Shown: positions 3,001 to 40,400 of the stretch, piece after piece
Position numbering within the stretch: position 1 is the stretch's first letter
How the letters are laid out: every line of letters starts with the position of its first letter
Assembly (NCBI GenBank): GCA_973895155.1
Contig: OZ316893.1
Span: 15,964,645 to 16,028,644 of the forward strand
Origin: Marsupella aquatica
Lineage: Eukaryota > Plantae > Marchantiophyta
Length of the DNA stretch: 64,000 nt
Direction of reading: 5' to 3'
Notes under the pieces: generated by a model
Told to the model about the DNA's origin: nothing
Databases searched by the model: none
The model's input: only the letters and a program-made list of their open reading frames with translations
Made by a program: the position numbers and the translations under genes

Positions 3001-4480
3001 GGGAGAACTACTGTGGCTTTGCCATGACCCTCCTCTATTTGATGTGGTCCCATGATAGTTGTTATTTTCCTTTGTGAAGGGGTGATTTCATGGAAATATT
3101 TACTATCCCGAAGGATAGTGTGGGTTGTGCCGCTGTCGACAATGCATAAATCTGGATCTTCAATATTTAATGATGAATCCAGCATATGTATTTCTGGTAT
3201 AATCTCTAGTGACTCCAAATAAGCCCCATGAGCTTTGAATTGCGATTCATCCAAGCTCTTCTTATAAAGTAGAACTAGGTGGCTAGGTGCATGGCATACC
3301 TTTTTGGTGCGCCCTTTAGTTCCGCACCTGTTGCATGTAATGGGATGCTCTTGTTTATAACTTGAGGTAGGTCTTTGTCGCTCCCAATTTTGTTGTTGAT
3401 GATCCACTCTGTTACTCTTCCAATTGTTTCAATTTGCATTGTTCATTCTTCCACGACCTCGTCCTCTATAGTTTGAACTGTTTCCACCTCTTTGGGAGAA
3501 ATTACCTCTCCCTCTCATTGTTCCTCGGCCACGGTATGAACCTCTCCCCCTCGATGTGTATCCATTTGTATTTGTCATATTTGTTTCTGCTGTCATATCC
3601 TGTGTAACTAAGTTGGTTTCAGTTTTGGTTGGTACAGGAAGTGTTCCCGGAGGTCTCTCCTTTGCATTGTTCATAAGGAGGATGGAATTTTTCTCTGCTA
3701 AAAGCATATGAGCAATGAGCGCCAAGTATGTTGTAAATGCCATGTTCCTATACTGATTTGAAATCACCAAGTTAGTTGGGTGAAATGTGGCCAATGTCTT
3801 CTCGATTTGCTGTTTATCACTGACTGGTTCTCCACACATTTGGAGTTCATTTGAGATTCTAAACATCTCACTGTTGTATAAATCTACTGATTTGAAATCT
3901 TGTACTCGTAGAGTAACTCAAGGTTGTAGAGCATTTGGCAGATTAATTGTTACGTAGTGATATGCTCGAATCTTGATTTCAATGCATCCCAGAGTAATCT
4001 AGGATTGTATACAGTCTTATATTGGCGTTTGAGAGGATCGACTAAGTGATGTCTCAGTAGTACCAAGGCTTGTGCCTTTGTGTATTGATCCACACCGACA
4101 TCTGTGTGTATGGCCTCTTCAATTCGTTTTGCTATGAGATGGACCTCCACATCTATATACCAATCATTGTAATTCTTACCATCTATTTGCAAAGCTAGAA
4201 ATAGAAGTTTTTTGATGGAGTTCGATGTCATTCTCGTATCAAGAATGTCTAATTGTTTTTCGAATGGATGTTTGGGTAGTGGTTCTCAATGTGTATCAAA
4301 TTGATGTATGTTATCAAATCTATTTTGTGAATCATCCCCGTTATCATTCCCTAAGGGTACGATGTTTTTACTGAAGAAATAGCCTGCATACGTTGCCCAA
4401 ATGTTGACAAATCTGTATAACTGCCAAGTATAACCGCCTCTGACAATGAACGACCCCTTAAAAAAAATTTAAGAGCACTC

Positions 4481-4494
4481 TCGTGCTGATAACG
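4481..4494 (-). promoter_or_regulatory. Primer-binding site complementary to the anticodon region of tRNA-Ile (half-tRNA priming)
   Basis: Plus strand TCGTGCTGATAACG abuts the LTR and matches the recalled plant tRNA-Ile(IAU) segment TCGTGCTAATAACG with inosine read as G. Confidence 0.7.
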
Positions 4495-4631
4495 TGTTAC
4501 AAACCTAATACACCAACAATGATATGATCTTCTATTCCAAGGAGAGAATATATACATATGGTAACTCTGGTTGGAGTTAACCATGGGTTCTAACTATAGT
4601 TAGTATACCCAATCATAGTTAGCGTATAACA
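4495..4631 (-). repeat. 5' LTR (about 137 bp) of the Bianca copia
   Basis: Minus strand reads TGTTATACG...GTAACA (TGTTA/TAACA termini), contains a TATATA box and is followed directly by the PBS. The partner LTR lies outside the window, so the outer boundary is not confirmed by pairing. Confidence 0.7.
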
Positions 4632-5536
4632 CAAAACATACTAGATATGTTCCACTGACTTCTTCTGAGGATGCCCGTCATAAATTGATGTTGAGTGTTT
4701 GCTACCCAAAAACTGATCCCAGACCCAGGGCGGCTTTCGCAAGTTCCAATAGATTGTCAGTTGGGTTCATGCAAGCCGTAATGGAGATCCTTAGTTTGTC
4801 AAAGGACATTGTCATTGATTGGACTATTGGAGATGGAAGTGCTTTTGCCGCTAGGGAATACGCAGGGAGATTTGTTGTGGGTGTTGAAGATCGAGACATT
4901 CTTCATCCGTGTGCTCAAAAACATCTGGCAAATGTGTTGGATAGACATGCCCAGAAGTTGAAAGGGGCCGCAGATCCGAAGAAAGAGGACCCCAATGATG
5001 AAGGATCGGACGATGAGTTCACCATCCCAGGAGATGATCAAGGAGGACCTTCAGATGAGAAGGATGAATTCCCGGATGAATTCAACCTGGAGTAAAGTAC
5101 TTGGCCTTTGATGTAGAACTCCCTATTTGGTGTTTTTCTGTTATTTGTAGAATTTTTGGATGCGTAGTATTGATCCAATGCTGGTGATTTCTTCAGTGAT
5201 AGGTGTTCGGATTGGTTTTCGGAGGAGAGATTCCGACTTCGAAAAGAAATCGAAGATCATTTTCTTGTGACCCCTGAGAAGGGATTCACGCTTCCTTGCT
5301 ATGCTGAAAAGTCTGAAAAGGAGGTTGATGAAGCGCCCGTCGTTTTGACTTGGGAGGGAAAAGGTCTGCAGTCAGTGAGGGGTGCTCGGAAAGCCCTTTA
5401 CTGCCCTCGGTTCATAGATGATGAGGCTGGTACTGTAACCCAGTATGTTGACGATTCAGCTGAGGAGACTGATAGGGAGTCGAGTAGCGATCCTAGTAAT
5501 TCCTCAGATGATTTGGAATCAGAGGATTCTCAATGA
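4632..5536 (+). pseudogene. 3' part of a gene interrupted by the copia; resembles the C-terminus of a beta-class N4-C/N6-A DNA methyltransferase plus acidic tail
   Basis: The frame is open from the LTR edge to 5095: RLSVGFMQAVMEILSLSKDIVIDWTIGDGSAFAAREYAGRFVVGVEDRDILHPCAQKHL. This parallels the N6_N4_Mtase consensus KPxxLxxxLIxxxSxxGDxVLDPFxGSGTTxxAAxxxGRxxIGxE. A second acidic open frame (about 5203-5536, CPRFIDDEA) may be a further exon. Confidence 0.55.
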
Positions 5537-6057
5537 CTAATGGTCAATTTTAGATGCAATCTCTTTCGAGAACATATTTGTCATTACAAAGTTTTATTAA
5601 AGGTGGATTGTGAAAGCTTTTCTGAACTGGTTTTGTTGACATTGATGATGCCTTTTCATTCAGTTCAGTGTTGTGAAGATCTCAAGTTTCTGGGTTGTGG
5701 ATATTTAAGTTTCTGCATTTCCCTTTCTCATAACTGTTTCACAATAAATTTATCCACAATCTTACTTGGGAATCTGCCTCATCTACCCTGAAGGTACCCA
5801 GAAAGTTGCCTCGCTAGCCTGCCTGCCTGCCTCGCTAGCAAAACTCCTGTTTGCTCGCAACATAGAATACCTCCAAGCATGCCACTGAAAAAGTTGTGTC
5901 TATTTGAGTAGCAATGAAAAATGTTTGAGTATCAGAGTTTCCAGTTTATCTCTTGGTTGCCATGGTTATTATCTACAGATTCTCTTGCACTTCCGCTTCA
6001 TGACACTATGAGGTTCCAGGAATTTTGTGTCGTGGTTACCATGGTTATTGTCTACAT

Positions 6058-11614: not shown

Positions 11615-12572
11615 ACCATGAGTTAAATTTATGTCAAGTTAATGCACCCCGATTTTCTCAGGGCACCGTACACTGCCCGTCTCAGTCCTGGAACAACCGT
11701 CTCAGTCCTGCCTGTTCCAGTTCAAGTTTACTAGAACAAAAACAAATACTCTAACATTTTGTCACACATTCCGGTCACATCAACTTTGTGCCATCTACTT
11801 TGGGTTTATGTCTTGGCACCCTTCAATTTTGGTTACGTGCTCTGGCCCGATCGACTTTGACCAGAACATAAACCAAGGCTCTATTAATTGTGACTCTCAA
11901 TCAAGGTATTAGGTTCCCTTTGAACACTTGGATTCTATTATAAAATAGGTATAACTCCATTGGAAAAAATGTTGTGAGAACATAAACCATGACTCCATAG
12001 AAAAGAAGCATTTGGCAAAACATCAACCAAGAACATCAACCAAGACTCTATCAATCCACTCTTAACCAAAATACTAGGCTCTGCCTAAACACTTATACTA
12101 TGTTACCAAGCAAGCATGATTCAGTTGGAAAGAAGTGTTGTCAAAACATAAATCACAACTCCATAGAGAATAAGTATTTGGCATAACATAAACCAAGACT
12201 CTATCAAGCATGACTCTTAACCAAAGTACTAGGTTTCCCTTTACATTTAGACTCTGTTACAAAGCAAGTATGACTATGTTGGAAAGAAGTGTTGCCAGAA
12301 CATAAACCACGACTCCACAAGGAAGAAGTCAATGACACAAAGTCGATTGGGTCGGAGCACGTAACCAAAAGTGAAGGGTGCCAAGACATAAACCCAAAGT
12401 TGATGGCACAAAGTTGATCGGGCCGGAACGCGTGACAAAATGTTAGAGTATTGGTTTATGTTCTGGTAAACTCGGGCCGGAGCAGGCAACAACATTGGGG
12501 ACTGGGACGGGCAATGTAAGGTGCCCCGGTAGAGTGGGGGCAAATTAACTTGACGTAGATTTAACTTGCGGT
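11615..12572. mobile_element. Non-autonomous Mutator-like element (about 958 bp)
   Basis: About 240-bp imperfect TIRs (11615-11859 vs 12339-12572). 9-bp TSD tgtaaatcc / cgtaaatcc. Interior consists of degenerate ~150-bp direct repeats (cataaaccaagactctat...ttggaaagaagtgttg). Confidence 0.8.
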
Positions 12573-13088: not shown

Positions 13089-14597
13089 AGTGGTGGACCT
13101 TGCCACCAAGCACCCTCACCAACGCCAACACCCACACCTAAGTGCCCTTGGTGCCTGAATGCCTCCACAGAATACATCAAGCAAGCAACCTAGTGCCCCT
13201 TGCACCCCCAGCGGTCCCTCCCATACAAAGCCACACTTGCTCTCCAACACGACCGCTACTCAACGGTCCTCACTGTATGCACAAGCAACCAAGCATCTCG
13301 GTAAGTAACCCTTCAGGATCTAGAACTCCCCAAGTCTAGCATCCTAACTCAAGCTCAACAGTCATTGGTAAGTAGGTCAGCGATATTCCTCCCGATGCCA
13401 TAAGCCGGAACTAGAACCACCGTCCACTATTCATCCAGAATAGCTCCTTCCTTGGGTGCAGCCCGGGTTCCCCCTTGTACCTATCCATCACCAACTGATC
13501 GCCCTCCCCTAGGACATGCTCATGGCCCAAGTAGCGTAGCTTGCCCTAAAACTTGTCCCAAGCTTGTCCCATCACGTTGGGACCAGAATGGCCCCGACTC
13601 TAGCGACCAACTTTTGGTTCTTGCCCCACTGATGGTCTAGGAGCCAAGTGCCCTTGGAACTCAACCTCCACACCTACTTGGCCTTGCCTCCCCAACGCAA
13701 GCTCCCTTGAGAGACTGAACGTGGTTTGGCTGTTGTTTCGACAGGATTTGGCAAGCGGGCGAGATAACACCCGTAAACCTCAAGAATCTATGGTGCCATA
13801 GACCTAGCTGATCTCAGAAGGATGTAGCCCTCCTCAAGATCTTTCCAAGGCACCCAAGAAGTCCTCCAACAAACTTCCCACTAAGAAGTTATCGTTGTTT
13901 CTGTTGACATTTTCCCTTAGTGTCGCAACCGCCGTAGTTCACGACTTCGGCTTGCCCTTAGCCACTAGGGAGACACCACTCCCTTCATACATGCTTCTGG
14001 AGACCTGCCACCCTCGGACCAACTTTGGTCCTCAAACTTTTGGTCTACAACCCGGATCCTATCCCGCCGGGTATCCCGCATGTCTGGGCGCGCCACCAAT
14101 TGGTAATGCCCATAACTTCCTAGTTAGGCGTCCGCAAGCAAAGTGCCTTAGCCCTTTGTGATCGGGGCAACCCAGTGCTGATGCCTAGGCCCTCAGATCT
14201 CATTGCCACTCAGGGCCCCCGATCGGCCAAACCCGCATCGGGTCATAACTCACACCCCCAAGCGTCCGTTGCCCATGGCATCAACTCCATTGGCCTTGGG
14301 CCCAAGAGGAGCTCTCACTCAAGCCCTCAGAACTCAAAGTCCGTCTGGGGTCCGGACGGTCGACCTTGAGCCCAGCCCTTTTCCTCTTGACCTGACCAAC
14401 TCTCATCTAGTCTAAGTCCTTAGTGTGTGTCATCAGCTTGGTGCCTTGCCTTCACTAGTGCCACGTCTCATTGCCCACAAGTTTCCCTATGCTAAGTCCT
14501 ACGCCGGATGGCCTATCTAGGCCTGGACCATAAGGGAGCTTGACGTTGGAGTCAGTGACGCCGGAGCTAAGTGTTAAGGTAGTCGAGTTCCGTGACT
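13089..14597 (+). repeat. About 1.5-kb dispersed repeat, copy 1 (probable LINE 5' region)
   Basis: Colinear with the reverse complement of 43090-44547, from agtggtggaccttgccacc to gccggagctaagtgttaaggtagtcgagttcc, with many substitutions and small indels. Confidence 0.85.
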
Positions 14598-16499
14598 TGG
14601 TTCCATGAACAAACCTCAAGTCGCGTTATCTGATTGGAATCATAATCTCGAGGTTTGAACATTTTCCTTCTTCTGGGGGTAGAGTGCAAGGTTGAGTGGT
14701 AGTTATCGCATTTCCTCGTGCGCTATGATCGAAAGGATATCTAGATCGATATCTTCAATCACAATCTCTAAGCTCTAAATAATTGTCAGGAATTTTTAGT
14801 GTTTTGAGGGAATTTGGGTCGAGCCTTCTTGGGATGACTTTACAAGAGGTTGGGGGCACTTATGACCTTGCTCACCAGAGCAAATTTAGGACTTCTTCTT
14901 CTAAAGATAGGCACCTGACCAATTGTTTCCCAAATGAAATTAAAAAAAAGCAAATCTTCAATGAAGGAGCCAAAGTTTGCAAAATGTTTGGATCACCTAG
15001 GTGCTCTAATTCTAAATGAAACTAGTATGTGGGTCTAGCTCAATTCTTTCACATAAATTATATAGCCAAAGTACATTCAGAGGAGTGTTGTAAATTTGTA
15101 TTAAATTTATGTGCATTAAATTAAATTTATAAGAATGACATCAAAAACTCATTTACAATAACAAGAGTATGTCATAAGAAAAATTATGGCTTGGATTGAG
15201 CCATTAGTTATAACTATCTGCAATACGATCTTGGGCAACTTAGTTTGAAGATTCAATTTGTTAATATATACTAGTAAAAGAAAATTATCATCATTATCCT
15301 AACATCATGGCAAGTGGAAACAAAGACAAAAACCATAAGTGTAGAATCATCACAACTGTTGTGGAGAGAGAGGTTATATATATATATAGACCAACTTTCA
15401 TGGGAGTATGAACACTCATTTTGTCACCCCATGTTGCATTTGAGTTGCAACTTTGTTGGTTGCACATGTGTTGTGAGTTTGGGAGGGTGACCTGGCATAG
15501 CAGGTCACCTGGTAGGGGTGACCTCTTCACCCAGGTTACCATGCCTTTGTGCCATGGGGGTATACCTTGGAGAATGAGGGATTAACTCCTCATTCTTCCA
15601 AGTTGAGCCTCCCGGCACTAGTAGAGCTCTTGTGAGTGTGGCTATGGTGAGAGAGAGAGTGTATGCCGGTTGGCATGAAGAGCAACATTGGCAGGGATCT
15701 GCTATGTGTATAGACTTGGAGTCCTGCATGGTTAGCGGGTGAGTTTGGCTCGACTTAGTGATACCTTGCAGCGGGGTCCCGTTTCGCAAGAGATTACTTG
15801 GAAGAATGAAGGAGGAGAGCGGATGCTCTCAATTTTTCTGAACTGTGCGGACCAGCAGAGGTGCTCGGTGGAGCTCGGTGATTCATCCGTTCGTTCGTTG
15901 TTCATTGGTGCCAATAGTTGGTGGGCGTTTGTTGATCGCTGGTTGATACTGCTGGTTGGCAACATGTATCTGGGCGCGGAAGTGCTGTCAAAAATCAATG
16001 AGAGTATTATGATTTCAACTCTGAATTTCCTGAAATCTGGTTGCACTTTCATCGCGAATCGTTGATGCGGAGAAGCTATGCTCATTGTATGCGCCGATTG
16101 AATGGTTGTGCGGAAAGCTCTGTTCATTGCTGGTTAGAGAGGAAGGCTTGCTGCAGATTTTTGTATGCACAAAGGATGTGCGGAAGCCATGCCCAAATTT
16201 TGATAGAAACTCTGATTGGATGGATAACCACTAGAAATTTTATTGTGATTTCGGATGGAGCATGCCGATGCGGTTGCATGGTGAAGTTTGAGTGAAAAAT
16301 AGCTTGAGAGGTGGACGTTATGTGCTTCAAACGTTTGCTGGAATTTTGTTTGTTGTCGATGATTTTTCCGACGGTATTTGGTGACGGAATTTGTGACGGG
16401 ATTTCAATGCAAATTGTGGTGCAAATGGCTACTTTGTGAAGTTGTATTGTGCACACATTTTGTGCCTACCTTAGGGGGTTCATAAAAAACTAAAAAGAA

Positions 16500-17650
16500 T
16501 ATATGTTTAGAGCCTAAGCTAGCTTGGAGAAGGGAGGAATTCCAAAGCCTGACTTAGTTGGTGGCATTTGGGAAACAAAATCCACTTTAGAGGGGTTCAA
16601 GATATTTTGACTGTTGTGTTTAGTGGCTCAAAACCTGCACACTACCCTCCACCTTTTATCCCTACTTGGTTGCCTCTACTTTTTGTCCCCTTTGACACTT
16701 TATTTGTTACCCTCCTACTAGTGTAGCCATATGCTGCACTTTTATCCCATCCGTGTCCACTTAATTTTGTGCTCTCTTTTTAAGTGATTACCCTTTCTTC
16801 TTTGTTATTTTGGTGGGCCTTTTAGTGCTACCCCTTTTGTTACCCAAGGGAATCATATTTAAAAAGAAATAGGGTAGGGACCCAAGGTAAAAGGGGCTCC
16901 CCACGGAAGCCAAGGCTGGAGTTAAAGTGGGCCAGTTGGGCTCCCAAGGAGCCAGGAGGCCCCTTCTCGAACATTGAGGAGGGGGGAGGGCCCAAGGTGG
17001 CCTGTCACATTTTTTTTAAAAGGAGGGAGGGCCCAAGTGTGCCACGCCTCCCCAAGGAGGTCCAGGTACAAGGAGGGGAGGGACAACATTTAATAAGGAG
17101 GGCCCGCAGCCCTATGAATTGGTTTTAAAGAGGGGTGAGGAGCGAAGGAGGCAGGGAAGGGGCATTCCAAGCTCCCTCCTCTTGGGAGCATTCAAGGAGG
17201 AGGGCTCGTAGCCCTATGGAGTGTCATTAAGAAGGGGCCCGAGGTGGCAGGAGGCCCCCCACAAGGACAGGAGCGAGCCCATTGGCCCCAGATGCCCGGA
17301 GATCTCCCAGCACTTAGGAGCGAATTGGGAGAGGGCGCGGCAGGCGAGGGGTGGCAGGGCATTAATGCAAGGCAGGGCCCGAGGCCGGCAGGTGTCCACG
17401 CCTCATTAGGTGTATTTTGGCCGTATCCTGCCGTGTCCAAGCCCATTTCTCCGTATTTGGACACCGTTTCCCGTATTTGTGCTGTATTTTCGTATTTGTG
17501 CCGCATTTTTGTAATTTGGGTTGTTTCCGCACAATTGCCGCTGCGGGAAACTTCCAGGAAGCTTCCTCTGTACTTGGTGCAGCAGAAAATCCAAGAGCTC
17601 ATTTCTGCACTTTGCCCGACACCATTGTGACCCCCCCCGTGGTTGCACCA
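16500..17650 (+). repeat. Candidate 5' LTR/leader of the gypsy element (boundaries approximate)
   Basis: Non-coding purine/GC-rich block directly upstream of gag, with ccgtattt mini-repeats and weak resemblance to 57000-57350. No partner LTR, PBS or TSD was identified. Confidence 0.3.
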
Positions 17651-20639
17651 CCATAGCTCGGTCATCTGGAGTCCATTTTGCTCACCGATTACAGGGTTGG
17701 ATGCGGTGGCTCATTGGCTATCAGAATCAGTTGTCTGCACACTATTCCGACACATTTCATTTTTTGGCCATTTTGTGGTGGTCTTGTTGCAGTCATTGGC
17801 GGTAGTTACTGCCAAGTGATTGTTGTGCCGCAGGAGTGCTACATTTTGTTGCATAGCCACACTGGAGACAGGAGTGACTCGCAGTGGTGCCCGATTTTGA
17901 CCATTGGAGGCAGAAGAGGGCACTGTGTCACCTGGGCGTGGCACTGGCACCGACCCTGCCGTGGAGGAGGCGACGCGATTACTGTCCCGATTGTCACTGT
18001 ATTCACGCATTAGTCCCTACAATTGGGACATGGAGCATTCCATGGATAGTCGGATTCGGAGGTTTTCGGGAGATGTTGGCACCATGGAGTTGCCACATTT
18101 CATTATGGAGTTTGAGCGGTGGTGTGATCAACAGAAGTTGCACAGCACGACATTCTCCCCTTTCATGGCATGGCGGGCATTGTTCCAGCACTTGGAGGGG
18201 CCACCCATGCATGACTATGAGGAGTTCCAGACAATGTATGCTGAGCACATTGAGTCTTGGAGACGCAAGTGGTCTCCAAATTACGTCTCACTCACAAGTG
18301 AAGACGTGTCCCCGAAGGAGGAAGAGGGTGCTAGCAGCTCTAGCACATCGTTGCCAATCCCCAGGTTCAACCCGATGGTGGAGTTCTTCAAGGTGTTGAA
18401 GAAGAATTACCAGGGTGTCCGCGTGGACAAGTTGTTGAGCCTCCAAACATTCAGCAGGATGGAGGGTGAGAGTTTGCGCAAGGCGTACACGCGCATGAGG
18501 CGCTTGATCAGTACCACAGAGGGCATTACTGATGCTCAGGCTATCCAGATTTGGTACCAGGCCCTGGATAAGGATTTGAGGAACCGGGTTCGGTTTTTGG
18601 CGTTGGCCACTGATGAGAAACTGACACTGGAGAAAGTTTTCCTGCTTTCTGATACCATTGACATGAACCGGTCAGAGGAGAAGGTTGTCACCCTTGGATT
18701 TGGCAAGGCGTCCCCTGGAGGCAGTGCTGCTAGTCCATCTGGTGGGCAGCAGCCACATCGATTAGGGAATGTGCCAGGGAGGGCACAGCCCAATGCTCCC
18801 GGTGGTGCTATTGCTGGTGGCAGGAGAGCAACAGCACCCCAACGTCCCTTTCAGCCCTCTTATGCCACTCAGGTGGAGTGCTGGAGCTGTAAGGGACCTC
18901 ATAACCAGCGTGATTGCCCTGAGCGGAAGGGTCCACCACGTGCAGAGCCGGGCGGAGCTGCCCCTAGACAACCTGATCTTAGGCGTTGTGACCATTGTCA
19001 CTGAGATGGGCATACTATTGACAGGTGTTTTGAGCTGCATCCAGAGATGCGTTTTGGTGCTGCCCGCAGGGGAGTTCCTCCTAGAGGTCGTGGAGGCCCC
19101 CGCCCTGGTCGTGGAGGTGACAGGGTAGTCCCCGCAGCCGATGCACAGACCACCGATCCTGCAGCAGCCACCAGGATCCAAGAGTTGGAGAAACAATTGG
19201 CAACAGCCAATTTGGCGTTGCGGGCCCCTAGCAACGGTGAGGCCTCTAGTTCCCGCACCATGGATAGTTCACAGATTGCTCCTGGATTCAGTGACTTGGA
19301 TTACATGTGCGGTGTTGCACAATTAGACAGTGTTGCAGCTGTCACCAGAGCAGTGGCTAGGATTGCTGAGCCACGAGGTGCTCTCGTGGAGCTGGATCCA
19401 CAACGAGGGGAGGCCAGCCGACAACAGAGATTACCATAGAGTTTTACATTGATGGATACTACACAGACTTCTACTATGGCACCCATTGCTGACAGCAGTG
19501 GACCTTTTGTCCACTCTCGTGATCATATGGGGCCACCCAACATTGATTTCTGACATGGTCATTAGCCCAGTGTTGGGGGCGGCTAGAGCCTTGTGTCAGG
19601 TTCCATTGTTTTCTTGTGCTCAATTATCTTCTCTTGGAGTTCCTATTGCAGAAGTGTTGCGCCAGGCAGCTGCATTGTATGATACTGGAGCAGTTTTGGC
19701 ATCTAGCTGTGACACAGCTGGTCCACCGGTTGGCCCAGATGACACAAGGTCCAGCCATTCTTTGTTGAGAGATGCTAAGACTTCTTGGCAGGCTTCTGTT
19801 GCTTGATTGAGTGAGCTCCCTGCCAGACCAGCCATTGATCAGAGTGTTGTGACTCCCGGTGTGGTTGTGGTGGACAACCGTGCTGGTGTTTTTACATTGG
19901 TTGGCCCTAGTGGCACAGTGTATGTGCCACCCCGTGTATTGTTGGATTCAGGTGCACAACCTCTCATGCTGGGGAAAGCAGCTATCCAGGGCTTGGGCTT
20001 GAAGAAGGCTAAGGTGGAGCCTTGCCCATTTCAGATTCATACATCTTTTGGTGTCCAAGAGAAGGCACAGCACATGATGCGAGACAACCTTACTGTGAGG
20101 TTAAATCCCCACCGCACTGGAGATGACTCTGCCTTGAAGCCGTTGTCACACCTGCAGAGTCTTATGATGTTTTGGTAGGGGGAGCCGTACTCTACCCCAT
20201 GAGCTTTGTGTTGGATTACTGGCAAGAGACTGTTCACTATCGACCAGGATGGCAGTCTGGTGATGGTAGGAAGTGTGAGTTACCAGTCCACTACTTTCTA
20301 TGTCGGACTGAGCCGTCAACAGAGCAGATGATTAGTTTGTCAGCTTGTGCTGGAGCTATCACCTGGCCAGGTGATCTCTTGGAGGGTAATGCCCATGCTG
20401 CAGACATCCCCGTAGTAGAGCAGTTGCACGACTCCTCAGGTAACCGCAACATTCCCATTGTCCCACAGGTATGGGGTTCCACTCCTGAGTTACAGCAGCA
20501 TGCTGATTCATATATATAGGCAACTTGGCGTGAACCATTTGCCCCTTTAGTGGAGCCACCTGTGGTGGATGGCATTCCCAAGTTGATCACTGTGTCCCCT
20601 TTGGACACCACTCCCATTTTGTGGACATACCCTACTGAG

Positions 20640-21620
20640 GGTATTCGCTTGTTGGAATTGTTTGGTGGCATGAGCACTGGTTTAGCTGTTGTCTTACATG
20701 CTAGCATTAGAGTGCAGCAGTATCTCTATGTGGAGCGCGATGACACAGTCCGACGTGTCTCACTGCGTCATGTTGCTCAGTTGCATCAAGAGTTTCCTGA
20801 TTTGTTGTCTCTATCAGCTATCAGAGGTTATTAGCACGCTTTGCCAACAGACATCTCACTTTTGGGGGCGCTGGATTTAGTACGCATCGGTGCGGTTCAC
20901 CTTGTCATTGCTGGTTGGCCATGCCAGGGCCATTCCTCTGCTGGGACAGGATCTGGTCTCAAAGACCATCGTTCTCACATGTTTTGGGAGATGCTGCGTG
21001 TCATGAGGTTTTTGCAGGAGCAACAACAAGTCTCTCCTGCCTACATTCTGGAGAATGTTCCCTTGTTGGGTGATACTCGGTCACAGATGGTGGCTAGTAT
21101 GCACCAAGTGAGGTCTTGGTTAGGACCTGCTGTTTTTTTAGATGCTGCTAGTGTCGGATCAATAGCACATCATCCACAATTATGGTGGACCAACTTGATG
21201 TCGCCTGAGGTTTTGCGGAGGGCATATCAGCACATTGTGCGGCCTATTGGGCTCATTGTGGACCGCATTTTGGATGCTGGACGGCATGCACAATTGGTGC
21301 GTCACGATGATCGCTCCCCATTGGCAGTGGTGAACCGGGTCACTGGTCAGCCCCGTGCAGCACTTCCCACTTTGGTGAGTTTCCCTTCATCATATGCTTA
21401 CCGTAATGGTGGACCGGGGTTAATTTGGGATTTCCAACATAGAGAGTTGACGGAACCTACTGCTGATGAGCGTGAGCATGCTATGGGATTTCAGACTCGC
21501 CCCACAGCAGTACCCTCAGTGACTGAAGCGGCACATCGTCACATTCTGGGTCAGGCTATGGATCTTAATTGTTTGACTTGGATTGTGAGCTTAGCCTTGG
21601 CAGAGCAGCGCCGGTTATAA
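20640..21620 (+). pseudogene. C5-cytosine DNA methyltransferase domain within the gypsy pol
   Basis: Motif I LLELFGGMSTG, II YVERD, III DI, IV AGWPCQGHSSAG, VI ILENV, VIII AHHPQLWWTN, IX EREHAMGF, X ILGQAMD. One internal TAG at 20832-20834. Same frame as the end of the protease and the start of RT. Confidence 0.93.
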
Positions 21621-23004
21621 TCATTTGTGACACCTCCACATGGATGTTCTTCCTCTCTTGGGTCCTTAGCGTTCAGAGCAGGGGGCGACAATGCCACAGA
21701 TCGTCATCCCTGGACTTCATGGGGAGTCAATGGAGAGGCCAGTGGGCTTTCTTTTTTGCAGCAGCATGGTATTGCTGCTCGTGAGGTTGCAGCATAACAA
21801 CCACAGTTGGCGCTCTCTGCACCTTCTGCCGAGGTTACCATTGACAGTTGGGAGCCAACTACTGGCCCCAAGATCATTGGAGGTGAGAGACGACGTGTAC
21901 GACAGTTTCTAAGGAGTTATGGAAGTTGTTTTGCTTTCAGCATGCAAGATTTGGGCATGTTAAAGGGACCAGGCATCCGGATAGATTTGGCAGTTGATGC
22001 TCCCATCTTTCGGAGACCATATCGGTATTCAGATATGGAGAGGGCACTGATTCAGGCAAGGTGCTAGGATTTGTTGGCAACAGGACTTGTGGAGAAGTCA
22101 TTTGGTGAGTATGCTTCTGCCACTGTGATGCCAGCAAAGAAGGATATGCATGGCAATTGGACTGACAGAGAATGTGTGGAGACTATCGTCCAATTAATCG
22201 GCAGACTAAGTCTGACAGTTATGCCATGCCCACACCGGAGGAAATATTTGATGCCATTGGGCATGCGAGAGTGTTTAGCACATTGGATCTCAGGGCTGGA
22301 TATCACCAGCTGCCTATCAGGATTGGTGACAAGCAGAAGACAACATTCTGGGGGATTGTTGCTCATGGGAAGGATGTGTTGTATCAGTGGCTATTCTTAC
22401 CGTTTGGATTGAAGAATGCACCAGCTGAGTTTCAGAGGGTCATGGATCGGATTTTGGCAGACCTGGATTTTGCCAAATGTTATATCGATGACATTATTGT
22501 CTACAGTGACACTGTGGAGGAGCATGCTATACATTTGCAACAGGTGTTTGAGCGACTAAGAGAACATGGATTGAAGCTGCATCCTGGCAAATGTAAGTTC
22601 TTCCATGACCAGATTGCATATTTAGGGCATACCATTTATCCAGGTGGATTGGGTGTGCAACAGACAAAGGTGGAGGCAATTGCTGGCATCCCTCAGCCTA
22701 CAGATGTGAGTAGAGTCCGAGCATTTTTGGGGCTTGCAAACTTCTACCGAAGGTATGTGAAAGGATTCAGTGCAATTGCAAAACCTTTGACGATACTTAC
22801 AAGACTGGACCATGAGTGGCAGTGGGGTGATGATCAAGATAGAGCTTTTCATCAGTTGAAGGAGAAGCTCACATCAGCGCCCATCTTAAGGAGACCTATC
22901 AGGGGGCGTCCATTTAGGTTGCATACTGATTGGAGCATGCTGGGACTTGGGGCAGTGCTCGCTCAACAGGATGATGAGGGAAGGGAGTTTGTGGTAGCAT
23001 ATGC

Positions 23005-23291
23005 CTCGGGGGGTTAACTAAGTGTATATTTTGGGGTACCACGTGCGATCCTAGCCTAATATAAATAGACCTATTTTATAAAGAAAACATTCCAAGAATA
23101 TTCTCCATTTTCAATATTAATAATCTATTTTATTTTATAAAAAGTATATATTAGAGAATATTCTATAAACATGAGTTTATAATACCTTCTTTTGCCTCCT
23201 ACGTTTTTTAAAAATTTAGTTAATTTCTATAAAAAATACTTATTTTGGATCACACGTGGTTCATAAGATTTTTGATAGTCAACCCCCCGAG
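23005..23291. mobile_element. 287-bp AT-rich MITE (hAT-like) inserted in the gypsy RNase H
   Basis: TIR CTCGGGGGGTTRACTA. Perfect 8-bp TSD gcatatgc (22997-23004; 23292-23299). Removing it restores VVAYASRSNN. Confidence 0.92.
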
Positions 23292-25080
23292 GCATATGCC
23301 AGTCGATCGAATAACACTGCAGAATCAAAGTATGGCTCCTATGAGGGAGAATGCTTGGCTGCAGTGTGGGCAGTGGCTCATTTTCGATGTTACTTGTTTG
23401 GTAACCCCTTCACTCTTGTTACGGATCATCAACCACTCAAATGGTTGATGGAGTCAGACAAGCTTACTGGTAAGCTTGCTCGTTGGGCACTCATACTTCA
23501 GGAGTATGATTTTGAGGTCTTGCATAGACCTGGTCACTTACATCAAGATGCTGATGGATTGAGTCGCAATCCCTGCCCGAGCCAGAGGGATTTGATAGGA
23601 GCACGTTGGCATGATGAGGCAGACGAGGAGATGGTTCCAGGTTGGCATGCTTCTGCTTATTTGTGCTTGTTGCAAAGTGTGGATGGTCTTGGTGTAGTGA
23701 CATCATTGGAGAGGCCCAATGCAGACTTTGTGGATCCAGAGATTTCTAGTGAGGAGTCTGTTGGCCATGATATTCATGATGATGCAGATGTTGTGATGTA
23801 TCTATGCACGGGCAGCATGCCAGGCATGGTAACTGCCAAGGAGAGAGATCGGATCCTACAACGAGCTAAGAGGTTTAGATAGGAAGGATCTCACTTGTTG
23901 AGAGTTTGGGATGATGGCAGGGTGCGATTGGTACCTCCTTTATCCCAGCGTGCACGATTGGTGTTATGGATTTTGGCGTACATGTGTTGTGTGTCGTGTG
24001 ATTATTTATTTTCTTGTTTACATGGTGTGCCGCGATGTGAGTTGTGTATGGATGTGTGTCCGCACGACAATTTCCTTGCATGATGTAGATTCTATAATAT
24101 ATTGTACTTTATGATGTTATTTGTCTTATTATTAAATGTAGCTTTCTTCAGTATGTAGAGATTAATAGCTCTAATAAACTGAACAAAAATAAGTTGGATA
24201 GAAGATTAGTGATGTTGTATTCAATGTTTGGGGGCTTGTGCAGATTGATTGGAGGTTTTACTCATAATTCTTTTGGTGTGCCTAGGGAGGATTATAGTGA
24301 GGATTACAACATACTTCACACTAGGTGTGAGGAGAGTTTACATGAGACATTCAAGCTTGGAGGCAGACATCAAGTGGTAGAGTATTTTCGTAGGGCTCTC
24401 ATCGTGTGACCAGGTAGGTTTGTATGATTGCATGTTTTGTTTGATGATTACAATTTGTATGGATTTTATTAGTTGTGAAGTGGCCTAATGACCTTTGAAT
24501 TCAATTCTTGACCCCATTGACCCTTTCTTGAGATGAACATTTTCTTCTTGGTTGCTAGAGAAGCTTGGGAGAGTTTACAAATTATTTGGCAATCAATAGC
24601 AAACTCAACTTTATTACAACACTTCGAATTCAGGTTTGATTTTTTTCTCTTCTCTCTATATGGTTAATAGTTGTCATTGCTAATATTTTTGTGTAATAAA
24701 CCAATATCAAACATTTATGCAGTTCCAAGATTTCACCTCTAGTATATTGATTTGTGATAATTATTTGTGAATAAAAGAAAGTATAAAGTACTAATTTTCA
24801 ACATTCTGATATTCAGATCTAAACTCAGTGTACTGTTTGACCAGAAAATTGGAGCTTCATATTTGACTTGTAAATGTTTCTCAAATCTTAACAAGTAAAG
24901 AAAAGTAAACACTAATACTGTATCTAAGGAGCTTTGCTACAAAGAAAAGCATAAGAAAACTTAAGCTTGAGAGTTATTTCATTTTGTTCCTTTTCCAATA
25001 GAAATAGCAGACGCAAGATCTACATTTGATACTACTCTTAACATCACAAGCCATTACCTTAAAAATCAAGAAGATTCCAA

Positions 25081-25500
25081 GTTAAGGCATCATGATGCAC
25101 ACATTTCCAAGTGTACTTTGTGACCCCAATTGTAATTTTAAAATTAATAAGGTTACAAGTTAAGGCATTCTGGTGCACACATCCGCAAGGGTCGGTGTAC
25201 TGTTTGACCCACATTGTAACTTTGAAATTGATAAGGTTACAAGTTAAGGCATTCTGGTGTACTCATCCGCAAGGGTCGGTGTACTGTTTGACCCCAATTG
25301 TACCTTTGAAATTGATAAGGTTACAAGTTAAGGCATGTTGGTGCCCACATCTGCAAGGGTCGGTGTACTGTTTGACCCCAATTGTAACTTTGGAATTGAT
25401 AAAGTTACAAGTTAAGGCATTTTGGTGCACACATCCGCAAGGGTCGGTGTACTGTTTGACCCCAATTGTAACTTTGGAATTGATAAGGTTACAAAGTTAA
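25081..25500. repeat. 84-bp tandem array A (5 units)
   Basis: Unit gttaaggcattctggtgcacacatccgcaagggtcggtgtactgtttgaccccaattgtaactttgaaattgataaggttacaa starts at 25081 (degenerate), 25159, 25243, 25327 and 25411. Confidence 0.97.
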
Positions 25501-25788
25501 GATCAGTGATTTCACTAACTCTGGACATTCTTTTGTCCAATTTTTTATCATGAAATTTCCAACACCAATTATTCTTTTCCCTATAACTTGAGTTCTAGAG
25601 TACATTGTATGCTATGCATAGATTTATTAGGAGTAGCTTGTTAAGCTTCATATATCTTGATCAAAAAATTTCAAATATGATATTGATAAGTCTCATATTT
25701 ATCTACAATTCAGTTGATTTAAATTTCCAAAAAGTTGTTATGAAATTTCCAAATCGTTAATAATATTCCAGAATTAGTGAAACTATTG

Positions 25789-26226
25789 ATTAAGGAATTC
25801 TGGTGCACACATTCGCAAGGGTCAGTGTACTATTTGACCCCAATTCTAACTTTGAAATTGATAAGGTTACAAGTTAAGGCATTCTGGTGCACACATCTGC
25901 AAGGGTCGGTGTACTGTTTGACCCCAATTGTAATTCCTGGGCCCTCACTCTGTGTAAAAGAAGTAGACCCCCCTACGATCGGGCCCTTTTTCCTGTTTAC
26001 CCCTTGTTATTTCCATTTTACTATTAAAAGTTCCCTTATTACCGGTAATAATTATAATTATTAGTTCAAAATGAATAAAAATTACCCTTCAAGCATTCGC
26101 ACGTCCTCCACATATTAGTTAAGGCTGAGGGCCCAGGGATTGTAATTCTAAAATTGACAAGGTTACAAGTTAATTAAGGCATTTTGGTGCCCACATCCGC
26201 AAAGGTTGGTGTACTGTTTGACCCCA
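25789..26226. repeat. 84-bp tandem array B (about 2.7 units, split by a MITE)
   Basis: Same unit at 25789, 25873 and about 26169; ends abruptly at gtttgacccca (26226). Confidence 0.93.
25936..26138. mobile_element. About 200-bp MITE inserted in an 84-bp unit
   Basis: TIR cctgggccctca / tgagggcccagg. Duplicated target attgtaatt (25927-25935; 26139-26147). TSD length is ambiguous (8-10 bp). Confidence 0.88.
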
Positions 26227-34594: not shown

Positions 34595-34721
34595 TTTCCT
34601 TTATCATCTACACGTAGAAATTGGCATCGGTCTTTATTGTTACCTTATACTCTCTATCTATCCTTATTTAGCCATTTTTTTAGGCTTAGTTATTACTTCG
34701 TGATCCTGGCAAGGCATCATA

Positions 34722-36068
34722 GTTACAAGTTAAGGCATTTTGGTGCCCACATCCGCAAGGGTCGGTGTACTGTTTGACCCCAATTGTACCTTTGAAATTG
34801 ATAAGGTTACAAGTTAAGGCATTCTGGTGCCCACATCTGCAAGGGTCGGTGTACTGTTCGACCCCAATTGTAACTTTGGAATTGATAAGGTTACAAGTTA
34901 AGGCATTCTGGTGCACATATCCGCAAGGGTTGGTGTACTCTTTGACCCCAATTGTAATTCTAAAATTGACAAGGTTACAAGTTTAGGCATCCTGGTGCCC
35001 ACATCCGCAAGGGTCGGTGAACTGTTTGACCCCAATTGTACCTTTGAAATTGATAAGGTTACAAGTTAAGGCATTCTAGTGCCCACATCTGCAAGGGTCG
35101 GTGTACTGTTCGACCCCAATTGTAACTTTGGAATTGATAAGGTTACAAGTTAAGGCATTCTGGTGCACACATCCGCAAGGGTTGGTGTACTGTTTGACCC
35201 CAATTGTAATTCTAAAATTGACAAGGTTACAAGTTAAGGCATTCTGGTGTACTCATCCGCAAGGGTCGGTGTACTGTTTCACCCCAATTGTACCTTTGAA
35301 ATTGATAAGGTTACAAGTTAAGGCATGTTGGTGCCCACATCTGCTAGGGTCGGTGTACTGTTTGACCCCAATTGTAACTTTGGAATTGATAAGGTTACAA
35401 GTTAAGGCATTCTGGTGCCCACATCCGCAAGGGTCTGTGTACTGTTTGACCCCAATTGTAATTCTAAAATTGACAAGGTTACAAGTTAAGGCATTTTGGT
35501 GCCCACATCTGCAAGGGTTGGTGTATAGTTTGACCCCAATTGTAACTTTGGAATTGATAAGGTTACAAGTTAAGGCATTCTGGTGCACACATCCGCAAGG
35601 GTCGGTGTACTGTTTGACCCCAATTGTAATTCTAAAGACAAGGTTACAAGTTAAGGCATCCTCGTGCCCACATCCGCAAGGGTTGGTGTACTGTTTGACC
35701 CCAATTGTAACTTTGGAATTGACAAGGTTACAAGTTAAGGCATCCTGGTGCCCACATCCGCAAGGGTCGATGTACTGTTTGACCCCAATTGTACCTTTGA
35801 AATTGATAAGGTTACAAGTTAAGGCATGTTGGTGCCCACATCTGCAAGGGTCGGTGTACTGTTTGACCCCAATGGTAACTTTGAAATTGATAAGGTTACA
35901 ATTTAAGGCATTTTGGTGCCTGCATCCGCAAGGGTCGGTGTACTGTTTGACCCCAATTGTAACTTTAAAATTGATAAGGTTGCAAATTAAAATTCTTCAG
36001 TGAACACATCCTTAAGGGTTGGTGTAATGTTTGACCCCAATTGTAACTTTAAAATCATTTGATAAGGT
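34722..36068. repeat. 84-bp tandem array C (16 units)
   Basis: Units start at 34729, 34813, 34897, 34981, 35065, 35149, 35233, 35317, 35401, 35485, 35569 (3-bp deletion), 35650, 35734, 35818, 35902 and 35986. Same orientation as arrays A and B. Confidence 0.98.
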
Positions 36069-37495
36069 ACAGGAAAATTTTCAAAATTCCCAACACTAAA
36101 TTAACATCATCTGAACATATTTTTTCATCACCATTTTTTCGTAATTAAAAATGCAAAGACATGACCTAAATTATGAACGTGGCTTTGACTTACTCAACTT
36201 AGGTAAAGTTGGCTTAGGGTAAGGTTGGCGTAACATAAAGTGGAGGTATCCCCTTACTAGCTCTTCTTCTCTCAAGAAAATTTCAACTCATTTGATTAAG
36301 TAAGGTGAAGTCTGTTTGAATCTTAATCTTTTTAACTCACTATTGGGAAATTTGTTTGAGCTCAAATGTCTAGAGTCCACATATTTCCCCTAGTTTTCTC
36401 TCTGTCTTTGAACATTTTCAGCCCATTTGATTGAGTAACAAAAAATGATAAAGCCCACTGATTGGATTGGTTTGGCCCTAACTTAAGCTTAGTCGGCTTA
36501 GGAAAGTTGACTTAGGGTAACATTGGGCTAATTTCAAGTATAAATATAGTTTTATTTTGAACTCACAAATTTGACCTCAGTTTGAGCTCAAACTTTAAGT
36601 ACATATTCTCCTAGTTTACTTTTATCTCTCAACAAGTTTTTAGCACATTTGGTTAAGTAAGGAGAAAATGCAGAATCACAAAGCTTCAGATAGATTTTGG
36701 TTTCTTGACTTTGATTTGGTCAGCTTAGTCAGAGTAGACATAAAGTACCTAAGATGGGTTTAAGACAAGATTGGAGAGCTCAAACTTTAGCTTCCCTTAT
36801 AGATTTCCCTAGCTTTCCTCTATCTTGTAGAGATTTTTCAGCCCATTTGGTTGAGTACAACAAAAATAATTGAAAGTTTTAGAGATCCAATTTGATTTTG
36901 GCTTCAACTTAGTTTCCCCATAATACTGGCACATATTTAATTATGTTTTGCCAGTTTCTTAGTGACATGCAACTAGCACATACTTGACATGTGTTACAAC
37001 TCTCACACACATCAACATTCTTGCATGTGTTTCCATTCTCACACGCATGACAATTCTAACACGAGTGAGTTTATTGTGCATCAATCCACGTTTCACAATT
37101 CTCACCAATGATCAATAAACATAAATGGTTAAGATTTGACTTGTTGTCTTATTTTATTGCCCAAAGTACTATGCAAGTTTTTGTTTAAATTTGGTATCAC
37201 AGAATATGTATCATTCCTGCACATGAACCAGAAATTTTCTTCACGCTTGTCACACGAGTGTCTTCAACCATCACACGAGTGTTAAGGCACGTTGCACAAT
37301 CTCCACCATTGATAAGTAAAATCCAACGGATATGAATTAATTGTTGACGTGAAATGTTCTCTGAATTTTAAAATTTGCAAGAGTCTCTAACTGGACCCGT
37401 AAAAAGTATTTTACATTACTTGGGGCCAGTACATGTCATCTAGGATTGATACATATCATACTTGAGTGGACCCCACTTCTTTACACCGATTCCGA

Positions 37496-40400
37496 GAGGG
37501 ATATGCTCAATAGACCCCCTCCAGGATAAACTTTACTTGATCAGCCCCCTCCAAATTTTTTTGCCCCAATCAGCCCCCTCATTATGGCCCGTACCCTTTT
37601 CCCCCGTGTAAGGCCCTATTCCCCCGTGTAAGGCCATACTGCACAGTTTTCAGCCATGCCACCATGCAGGGTTGCCTCCCATAGTCGACCATGCGACTCC
37701 GCTGCAGTAGGGCCGCAATTATGTGGTTTTGTGTTCTCGCACTATGGTCCCTTATGAGTGTGAATACATTGTGGTTTATGTATTCAACAAAATTTCTGTT
37801 TTAGGGCGCACATTGTCGGGGCGCGGTTTAGGGTCAAGCTCGAGAGTCATTTGTCGAGGGTGGGATCGACATTTTTCATTGTTTTACGGAGGGGACTGAG
37901 GCATCGTTTGCTGCTGGCGGCTGGCCATTTTGGGGAGGTTCATGCTTTGATCGTGTGCACATTTCATTGATCGATGCCAAAGGAGAGCTTGAGGTCTGAG
38001 TCGCAACCCACTGCTAGGATCGAGTAGTGTTCATTCACCCCATTCTCCAAGATTTCTTTCACATTGTAGCGCCTGCCAGATTGTTGGTGGGTTGTTTTGG
38101 TTTGGTGAGAGTGTCTCCCTTTGCTGTTCTTCAATTCCACAGGAGGATTGTCCGCCCACCAATGTAGCCCAAGAAACTGTTTAATCCTGCATACCATAAC
38201 ATGAATGACGTCTCCTGCATTATCTTATCCATCTGGTCGTAAGTTCTTCTGCATTGTTCAGATTTGCATTGTTCAGATTAGTTCAGATCATTTGCAGAGT
38301 CTCCTTGTTCTTGTGCATTTTTGTCACCATGAAATCCATGTCCTCCAGTTCTGCTGCATAGTTTGAATACATGGATAACAGTGTAGGGCTAGGTTGCATT
38401 TGGGAGTTCAATCCTGTTCTTTGAATTTGTGGCTTCAGTGGGGGCTTCAGTTTCCTCTCAGGATTTTGTGGTTGCTTGCGAGCTTTAGGCAAAGTGGACT
38501 TCATGACAGAGATTAATCTGCATCCCACTTGAACCCGTCTGTCTTTGTTTCTTGGTCGAAGCACTAGGTATGATTTTAGCTCTTTTTGCCTAAGTATAAA
38601 TCTTGTAGCACCATTATTTGCAAAGTGCTGAAGAAGTTATTAATTTCTGAATGCTTCATGACGTGCATTGCATCTTGAATTTTACAAACGTGGTCTACAT
38701 GTTGACAAGTTTGAATGTTGTGCGTTTGAATGCATTTGAATGTTGTGCATGTTTCGAATACCATGACATGAATGTCTTCAAGTTTTGCTGCCCTGTTTGA
38801 ATACCAAGACATCTGTGTATTCTAGTTTTGCTTATATCTGAACCTGTTCTCTTCTTGGTTTGGTCCAGCTATCATTAGAATCGCCTCTTGTTGTGCTCTT
38901 GTTGCAAACATTGATGGGCTGTTTTGTTTTGGTGAGAGTATCTCCCTCTCGGGCTCCCTCTGTTGGTCTTTCAGAGGAGGATTGTCCGTCAATGTAGCCC
39001 AAGATACTGTTTCCTGCATTTTTTGCATCGTGTTGATGCGCAGAATACCATTACCTGAATGTCTCTTGCATTCGGCAATTTTTGATCACCATCACATCCA
39101 TGTCTTCCGGTTCTGGCACTGCATAGTTTCAATATTACGTGGATAACAGTGCAAGGACTGATTCCATATATGGCAATTGAATACTATCCTTGAATTTGTG
39201 AATGAAGTTTCCTCTCATGATTTTGTGGTTGCCTGCAAGCTCTAGGCAAAGTGGACTTCACGACAAGGATATGTTGAAGTTGTGAGCATGAGTATAGGGA
39301 CCACTTTGCTTCCATTAAGGAGTGGAAAGCAGTACATGACGAAGGTCAAGGTCATAGGCTGGAGAGGTTGGGTTTGATTTTGAGCCCAACCAAGGTTCAA
39401 GCTCAGTTTCCATGGCGCCACAAATGAGAAAAATTCAGGTAGTAGAGGAAGAGAATCATTTTCGATATCGTGTTGATGCTGAAGGCAAGCATGTGTTTGT
39501 CTGCATAGCAAGTATGGTGTTGCTACCAAATGCTGGTCCCAAATGACTGCTTCACAAGATACATTCAGGGAGGCTATTGACCAACTCCCGCACACAGGTT
39601 CCCAGTATGCTGACTGAGCATGGACACCCTTCCCGTGTGGTACTAAGCCATTTTTGTGGTAGCTTCAGTGGTCTTCAGATGCAATGTAGCTTGAGGTAGC
39701 TTAAGATATAATGTAGCTTCATTGGAAGGCAAGGAGGCCCATGATACATCTAGACTGCAAGGTCACAACTTGACTTGCAGCTTGTACTTGAAACATTTAT
39801 GAATAAAAAGCAAGCTGCATTCACTATGTTCTGATGTATAAAAGTTATTCATTCTGCTGGAGACTACCTTCAGTTTGCACCTTCAGTTTTGGAAGACATC
39901 GTCCACATTGTCTTCGCACCACACTTAGCAATTTTTCCAACAACAGGATATTCTGCTTCAAGAAGCCATTTGAGCAGGGGTAAATGGCCGATGTTGTGGG
40001 TTTTGGAAGACATCGTCCACATTGTCTTCGCACCACACTTAACAATTTTTCCAACGACAAGATATTCTGCTTCAAGAAGCCATTTGAGCAGGGGTAAATG
40101 GCCGATGTTGTGGGTTTTGGAAGACATCGTCCACATTGTCTTCGCACCACACTTAGCAATTTTTCCAACGATTTTTCCACCCTCGACAAATGACTCTCGC
40201 GCTTGACCCTAAACCGCGCCCCGACAATGTGTGCCCTAAAACATAAATTTTGTTGAATACATAAACCACAATGTATTCACAATCATAAGGGACCATAGTG
40301 CAAGAACACAAAACCGCGTAATTGCGGCCCTACTGCAGCGGAGTCGCATGGTCGACTACGGGAGGCAACCCTACGTGGTGGCATGGCTGAAAATTGTGCA

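Follow-up and report, generated by a model that had tools for sequence, protein, structure and literature searches.

A stretch of 64,000 nucleotides from the liverwort Marsupella aquatica (contig OZ316893.1, positions 15,964,645 to 16,028,644; hereafter the window, whose own coordinates are used throughout) contains a dead copy of a Ty3/gypsy retrotransposon. We consider it probable that the family of this element carries a DNMT3-like DNA methyltransferase (DNMT) that ends a Gag-protease-DNMT frame, followed by a conserved, likely read-through stop codon and then by reverse transcriptase (RT), RNase H, integrase and a PHD finger. Gypsy-Dnmt3 elements are already known from the alga Klebsormidium; new here are their land-plant range and the conserved, probably leaky stop. 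In the literature searched (subscription papers, theses and Repbase entries lay outside its coverage), we found neither a report of Gypsy-Dnmt3 in land plants nor a mention of a conserved stop in these elements. DNMT3 retrotransposons "in streptophytes" are mentioned in the text of two recent papers, which refer to earlier work (PMC12344493; bioRxiv 10.64898/2026.05.21.726589).

A preliminary description of this DNA, made by inspection of the sequence, had placed a C5 DNA methyltransferase between the protease and the RT of a Ty3/gypsy element and had named PF00145 as the profile expected to recognize it. Both points were confirmed. The DNMT3-like C5 cytosine methyltransferase domain occupies positions 20628–21617 of the plus strand, and PF00145 matches 20835–21617 over its gathering score (E=3.6e-9), flanked by a weak aspartic protease match upstream and by RT and RNase H downstream. 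The domain lies in a frame of 683 positions with 5 stops (20127–22175), which extends from the C-terminal part of the protease through the full methyltransferase domain into the RT N-terminus. All 25 sequence matches in the PDB are DNMT3A, 3B or 3C. The structure predicted from a 17-row alignment has a mean pLDDT of 90, and Foldseek ranks DNMT3A first among its matches (E=2.3e-18, TM 0.72/0.82); matches in the ESM Atlas were to PF00145 clusters only, viral and eukaryotic, and were uninformative as to taxonomy. Motifs I, IV, VI and IX-X follow each other in canonical order, with FGG near 20661, PCQ at 20919, ENV at 21051 and GQAMD at 21549. The domain is thus an intronless methyltransferase located between protease and RT, whose DNMT3-type, non-rearranged identity follows from the PF00145 match, the PDB matches and the fold of the model. 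The statement that all main motifs are present holds for FGG, PCQ, ENV and IX-X but not for motif VIII (RxR, 21165–21185), where the window copy has lost both arginines although they are near-invariant in relatives.

C99 of PCQ, E142 of ENV and the arginines of motif VIII vary little or not at all among 17 diverse sequences. Because these catalytic residues are conserved among such diverse members, we take the enzyme of the family to be presumably active. The ratio of nonsynonymous to synonymous substitution (dN/dS) is 0.10–0.20 for the DNMT domain between divergent copies (0.05–0.08 for RT) and 0.41–0.93 between close decayed copies, these values being rough since most dS values exceed 1.3. 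As judged from such codon comparisons, the DNMT domain is shown to be under purifying selection in the element family.

The frame that carries the domain had been described as broken by point mutations only, within a single pol polyprotein. The frame itself stands, and the domain is an integral and inherited part of the element, but one of the stops, at 21795–21797, is conserved in the family and divides Gag-protease-DNMT from RT-RNase H-integrase; furthermore, frameshifts near 20135 and 22168 separate the DNMT frame of the window copy from the cores of its protease and RT. We tallied stops in 63 metagenome loci holding both the DNMT and the start of RT. A stop is found 14–21 codons ahead of the RT anchor in 60 of them (45 TAG, 15 TAA), and in 50 of 53 once near-duplicates are removed. 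The codon that follows is CAA or CAG (CAR) in 57 of these 60 loci and the next two bases are pyrimidines in all 60. Background nonsense codons turn up about once per 100 codons, and 10 of 397 such codons have CAR next to them. RT lies in the frame of the DNMT in 50 of 62 cases, and the window is one of these. Near-intact elements carry the stop as well: in L037 (L and P numbers designate metagenome loci and proteins), 1369 open codons precede TAG CAG TTA and 1047 open codons follow it; in L052, TAG CAA TCA is likewise followed by a frame of 1047 codons. Five subfamilies with nearly saturated synonymous sites (pS 0.62–0.79) retain the stop signal, and the annotated proteins P0002 of Calypogeia and P0004 of Marchantia end 92–94 residues past GQAMD. 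Contigs from four read runs of two organisms were also mapped to the window (2463 to 5924 pieces per run, the best 40 rows being listed). Among the matches listed, 10 to 22 contigs per run carry the TAG-giving base at 21797, representing 93–100% of depth, for the third base of the stop only; at position 21618, unlike 21797, most contig depth shows a sense codon. The codon at 21795–21797 is therefore a family-conserved stop and not a decay mutation.

The stop and the CAA CCA behind it (21795–21803) would terminate a first open reading frame (ORF1) that likely corresponds to Gag-protease-DNMT. Since the stop followed by CAR-YY resembles the UAG-CARYYA signal of tobacco mosaic virus (TMV), we regard it as likely that this stop is read through and that RT, RNase H, integrase and PHD are produced in this way. 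In plant viruses, UAG-CARYYA is described as the signal for type I readthrough (PMC5382211). In the plant reporter assays of another study, as given in its text, the TMV context allowed 32% readthrough and two other viral contexts 11% and 9%; UAA was also functional, and a C-to-G change right after the stop abolished readthrough (PMC2754532). No shared hairpin was evident on folding the 110 nt after the stop in five copies, a comparison made without shuffle control.

Under such a scheme, most ribosomes would halt at the UAG, and Gag-protease-DNMT would be made in several-fold excess over the product bearing RT and integrase, as the 9–32% of the viral signals would suggest (PMC2754532). The protease could then free the DNMT inside the particle, where the enzyme might methylate the newly made cDNA, a target already proposed for the algal elements (PMC5890265), or it might act on element chromatin after integration. 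New copies methylated in this manner would look like host DNA, or would start out marked. That the element's enzyme methylates its own cDNA is plausible on these grounds, but we place it somewhat short of probable. The DNMT3 domain could instead be kept for a role unrelated to cDNA, for instance DNA or chromatin binding that guides integration together with the PHD finger, or the damping of the element's own copies in trans. Several observations fit such a role: Gag-level output would exceed the need of one cDNA per particle, DNMT has a higher dN/dS than RT, and the K. nitens Dnmt3 domain gave no methylation in yeast, a result that weighs against cDNA methylation as well but that its authors, in the text of their paper, call inconclusive (PMC5890265). 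On the other side, the conservation of C99, E142 and the motif VIII arginines points to catalysis, and the related DIRS-Dnmt3 enzymes of dinoflagellates are reported to methylate CG de novo (PMC5890265). We therefore hold a role unrelated to cDNA to be rather unlikely.

Several features of the loci weigh against a readthrough signal of TMV type. The exact CAR-YYA sequence is present in the window and in only 8 of the 60 loci; the sixth base is A in 9 of them and a pyrimidine in 51, mostly from one abundant subfamily. This commonest subfamily reads CAA CCC ATG, making reinitiation possible there. In L032, L043 and L051 the stop is replaced by TAC (two loci) or absent (one locus), whereas L001 has a second TAG upstream of its DNMT that is not followed by CAR. 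The Coleochaete protein is open for 64 codons ahead of the conserved WEP and so lacks a stop at such a distance from it; in P0235, although its RT is nested in the same clade, DNMT continues in frame into RT with no stop between them. Finally, the stop-bearing loci are kin and not independent draws. Instead of being read through, a real stop could be circumvented: splicing might remove it, or translation might start again at an ATG further on, such as the one located two codons past it in the commonest subfamily, with DNMT3 still a Gag-level product. In Ogre elements, a stop-containing region between protease and RT is spliced out, and two gene models, P0008 in Marchantia and P0038 in Sphagnum, carry a DNMT joined to RT in a single protein, with the linker absent from P0008; these are predictions only. 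However, there is a single stop, with the frame kept on either side of it in the proportion given above; the window, L001, L037, L052 and L057 keep CAR-YY with no ATG right after the stop; and conservation of CAR is what a readthrough signal, as characterized in plant viruses and reporters, predicts (PMC5382211, PMC2754532). We thus consider splicing or reinitiation improbable and retain readthrough as the preferred explanation.

Searches with the DNMT domain retrieved 66 proteins, the named ones from Calypogeia fissa, Marchantia polymorpha, Sphagnum troendelagicum and S. fallax, with identities reaching 68% across the full query. M. paleacea and Riccia sorocarpa came in with a profile search, among the 120 of 143 matches listed, and a 50%-identity library yielded 214 proteins at E values up to 1e-30. 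From metagenomes, 80 of 97 confirmed loci were retained. Wherever the parts are present, these 80 loci show the order gag-protease-DNMT-RT-RNase H-integrase, with the exception of L076 (RT-RNase H-DNMT). A PHD finger (PF00628) is found at the end of the integrase in relatives, and a PHD-type C-terminus in L037 and L065. One protein of this lineage with RT, integrase and PHD, P0455 (in the cluster of P0224), is labelled by NCBI as from an uncultured cyanobacterium and is likely eukaryotic DNA in a metagenome bin. The preliminary description had allowed that other copies might lack the domain; with 66 proteins and 80 loci carrying it, we regard the DNMT domain as a family trait with near certainty, even though the loci were fetched via DNMT, so that family members lacking it could not appear.

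Phylogenetic trees were built from chosen subsets, short fragments and near-duplicates being excluded: 126 rows with FastTree, 62 and 36 rows for RT-RNase H, and 60 rows for DNMT, the latter tree being midpoint-rooted and made without host DNMT3, DRM or bacterial Dcm as outgroup. In the 36-row RT-RNase H tree, a clade of seven rows unites the window element with Calypogeia and Marchantia (99/96). With three further rows added, this clade has Coleochaete scutata P0218 as its sister (94/86); more distant is K. nitens P0253, in a 25-row group (93/92). The main nesting is repeated in the DNMT tree, and in both trees the window element is nested among liverwort and Sphagnum sequences, a placement that points to a bryophyte host. 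The accepted species order is Klebsormidium, Coleochaete, bryophytes. Because the RT and DNMT trees agree and the order of these lineages is that of the species, one old capture followed by vertical descent from streptophyte algae, with no recapture in land plants, would best account for the data; of the two possibilities previously put forward, that the lineage persisted into land plants or re-entered them, the trees favour persistence. The element very probably belongs to the same lineage as KnitGypsy-Dnmt3 of Klebsormidium, of which it would be the land-plant branch. This assignment is weakened by the nodes placing Coleochaete and Klebsormidium, whose support is under the star level, and by the K. 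nitens sequences: no K. nitens DNMT was found, and the RT of P0253 is not tied to any DNMT.

The lineage could also have reached land plants by horizontal transfer from an alga, or the DNMT3 domain could have been captured independently of the Klebsormidium elements. The names among the DNMT matches listed (66 of 66 in the first search, 120 of 143 in the profile search) include no fern, lycophyte, hornwort or seed plant, which counts against descent through land plants. Moreover, Marchantia groups with Sphagnum-type loci and not with Calypogeia (DNMT support 84; RT 98/91 with L023), against the species tree. Calypogeia nevertheless has two separate sublineages (P0215, P0216), so that paralogy can explain this mismatch. 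Transfer or independent capture also conflicts with the order of Klebsormidium, Coleochaete and bryophytes in the RT tree, with the agreement of the two trees and with a split-repeat layout common to KnitGypsy-Dnmt3, as described in the text of the paper on that element. We consider both improbable. A one-off capture or a passive insertion in the window copy has practically no probability and was rejected on the proteins of relatives and the metagenome loci with the same order: although a 10-nt direct repeat flanks the domain, this 10-mer is a low-complexity CAG run, identity to Marchantia P0004 (57%) continues unbroken over both borders, the position is repeated in dozens of loci, and contigs of other copies span the borders (20150–21089 and 21583–21859).

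A large sister group of elements has its DNMT between RNase H and integrase. It comprises 44 proteins with the order RT-RNase H-DNMT-integrase (P0089 and P0047 among them), of which the named ones come from the chlorophytes Scenedesmus sp. and Hariotina reticulata (P0047). These elements, Scenedesmus included, constitute a separate clade in the 62-row RT tree (99) as well as in the DNMT tree (99), Hariotina P0047 being outside those trees. No paper on Gypsy-DNMT3 in chlorophytes was found in the literature searched.

The element is longer than the range 17904–23963 first assigned to it. It extends from a TG at 15422 to a CA at 24069, between two copies of ATTT (15418–15421 and 24070–24073) that constitute a 4-nt target-site duplication on the plus strand, as are all the element features below unless stated. 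The duplication is supported by the sequence, by contigs that unite the flanks without the element (15417 to 24070) and by 4-nt duplications in complete relatives; exact ones were found in L049, L062, L064 and L065 (L064 and L065 share flanks), and one with a single mismatch in L011. Self-comparison revealed no paired long terminal repeats (LTRs) in the window, nor are two paired LTRs the structure of complete relatives. The preliminary description had expected intact copies with paired LTRs and the same domain order; the order is indeed repeated in metagenome loci, but the repeats are split, in an A-coding-B-A-B arrangement, complete in 5 of 27 loci examined (A about 320–345 nt, B about 115 nt). 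In the window, repeat A (15422–15794, starting with TGTCA) is the 5′ terminal repeat and repeat B (23962–24069), whose end CGCACGACA is identical in relatives, the 3′ one. Joints in contigs of the four runs connect 15794 to 23962 and 24069 to 15422, the latter with GC between; the A-B and B-A joints are thus present in the runs, while in the window copy the inner B-A is gone, as is most of the integrase.

The B|A junction is near-palindromic, CGACA-NN-TGTCA being found in 10 loci versus 0.33 in shuffled loci, and its spacer is GC in 6 of the 10. A purine run lies 103–111 nt upstream. This run sits ahead of B1, not A2, in 10 integrase-encoding split-repeat loci (including L011:14408, L052:8232 and L062:10344). 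Integrase would trim two-base overhangs from both cDNA ends, and the two spacer bases could serve as template for these. A TGG directly behind A1 was looked for in the five complete relatives and was present in none; no tRNA gene was found in the window, viral contigs gave no match to the element, and no RNA data set was listed as containing it, which says nothing about its expression. We suggest, tentatively and at less than even confidence, that one ancient DNMT3-gypsy lineage has been inherited across green plants, from the chlorophytes Scenedesmus and Hariotina through streptophyte algae to liverworts and mosses. Its land branch would have moved the DNMT to the Gag-level frame by means of a TMV-type leaky stop, so that particles would be loaded with a cDNA-methylating DNMT3, and its cDNA ends would be templated from the internal palindromic B|A junction and not from a tRNA-primed LTR pair.

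Between the repeats, the domain order of Ty3/gypsy elements (gag, protease, RT, RNase H, integrase) is recognizable, with an integrase that is short in the window copy and whole in relatives. Repeat A is followed by what, from its position ahead of gag, appears to be a long 5′ leader (15795–17900), covered by contigs in all four runs and measuring about 2.2 kb up to the first in-frame ATG near 18030. The gag-like region (17901–19487) contains two CCHC-type knuckles and is 44% identical to residues 12–491 of Marchantia P0004, with no Pfam match. The aspartic protease region (19549–20300; LLDSGA near 19940) was delimited by the P0004 alignment and a match to Asp_protease_2 below the Pfam cut-off. 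Downstream of the DNMT and the stop, RT (21840–22800, with YIDD) matches RVT_1 at E=2.4e-32, and the connection and RNase H region (22801–23600) is split by an insertion, with RT_RNaseH matches on either side. The insertion, to which no strand was assigned, is a miniature inverted-repeat transposable element (MITE) of 287 nt (23005–23291) with terminal inverted repeats and an 8-nt target duplication (22997–23004 and 23292–23299), recognized from the sequence and from contigs that omit 295 nt here; the length of the duplication suggests that it is hAT-like. Its terminal inverted repeats are G-rich, and the bin holding it is the depth maximum of the mapped stretch in all four runs. Only the start of the integrase region remains (23601–23961): it ends before the zinc-binding and core domains, the match to P0224 stops at 23963, and the C-terminal PHD of relatives is missing.

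The window copy is dead, given its nonsense codons and frameshifts, the MITE in RNase H, the mostly deleted integrase and the loss of both motif VIII arginines. Nonsense codons are located at 19002 and 19437 (gag-like region), 19804 (protease), 20517, 20832 (DNMT domain), 21618, 22065 (RT) and 23880 (integrase). Alignment to relatives places frameshifts between 19487 and 19549, near 20135 (in the protease region) and near 22168 (in RT).

Elsewhere in the window, a decayed Ty1/copia element with RVT_2 and SH3-like matches is present at 1042–3917 on the minus strand. On the plus strand, an unbroken frame of 545 codons (48575–50212) encodes a multicopper oxidase. The Atlas clusters nearest to it are for the most part bacterial (CotA/PhsA-like), Atlas taxa being no demonstration of transfer. 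Also on the plus strand, an SBP-domain exon (61468–62064) has Arabidopsis SPL7 as its nearest solved structure, in keeping with a land-plant host. An 84-nt tandem repeat forms two arrays (24984–25932 and 34638–36110), about 9 kb apart, with four minus-strand frames between them (275, 475, 523 and 335 codons) that have no Pfam match; arrays and enclosed frames possibly form one uncharacterized mobile element. Inverted copies of a 1.5-kb repeat with 84% identity are found at 13089–14597 and 43090–44547, and fold-back-like elements with long inverted arms and inner tandem repeats at 37496–40524 and 11621–12566.

If the proposed expression strategy is correct, the expected dose of enzyme shifts from one per polymerase to about one per Gag. 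The family also brings a retrotransposon DNMT3 into a genetic model, since Marchantia polymorpha has annotated Gag-protease-DNMT frames (Mp_4g09160 and Mp_8g17980), and the function of the element methyltransferase, a question left by the 2018 study of the Klebsormidium elements, can now be approached with existing Marchantia methylation mutants. Such frames may inflate the counts of "DNA methyltransferase genes" in bryophyte annotations, and split repeats would conceal the family from search tools that rely on paired LTRs.

The plant Ty3/gypsy lineages catalogued by Neumann et al. (2019, PMC6317226) share the order GAG-PROT-RT-RH-INT with the element described here. Compared by the text of that catalogue, they differ in that it names no PHD, Marchantia, Klebsormidium or Sphagnum and uses "methyl" only for histone lysine. 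The EpiLTRs and DAM-LTRs (bioRxiv 10.64898/2026.05.21.726589) are likewise LTR retrotransposons with captured DNA methyltransferases. However, the DNMTs of EpiLTRs are sister to DNMT4 and accompanied by DAM and a chromodomain; according to the text of that preprint, EpiLTRs are distinct from Gypsy-DNMT3 and DAM-LTRs are absent from Streptophyta. Among our sequences, the gypsy polyprotein P0261 resembles DAM-LTRs in that it combines PF05869 (Dam-type adenine methyltransferase) with a PHD finger.

With type I readthrough as described for TMV, benyviruses and pomoviruses (PMC5382211, PMC2754532), the element shares a UAG or UAA followed by CAR-YY and a polymerase downstream of the presumed leaky stop. 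It differs by being a retrotransposon, by the position of the stop after protease and DNMT, and by a sixth base that is usually not A. Leaky gag-pol stops are described as rare in LTR elements (VdLTRE5, Tca2), where they are placed directly after gag (PMC3441728). SymbioDIRS-Dnmt3 of Symbiodinium also combines a Dnmt3 domain in a retrotransposon with A-coding-B-A-B repeats, and its enzyme was shown to perform de novo CG methylation in yeast (PMC5890265); it has a tyrosine recombinase, whereas a DDE integrase, 4-nt target duplications and a gypsy RT characterize the present family. The closest parallel is KnitGypsy-Dnmt3 of Klebsormidium nitens (de Mendoza et al. 2018, PMC5890265), compared here by the authors' text. 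Two differences emerge: that text puts the DNMT in the Pol ORF with RT and RNase H, whereas a conserved stop separates them here, and our host is a land plant, while the species table of the paper has no Marchantia or Sphagnum row. The two share the Gypsy domain set, an intronless, non-rearranged Dnmt3-type domain, a dN/dS under about 0.2 and DIRS-like A-coding-B-A-B repeats.

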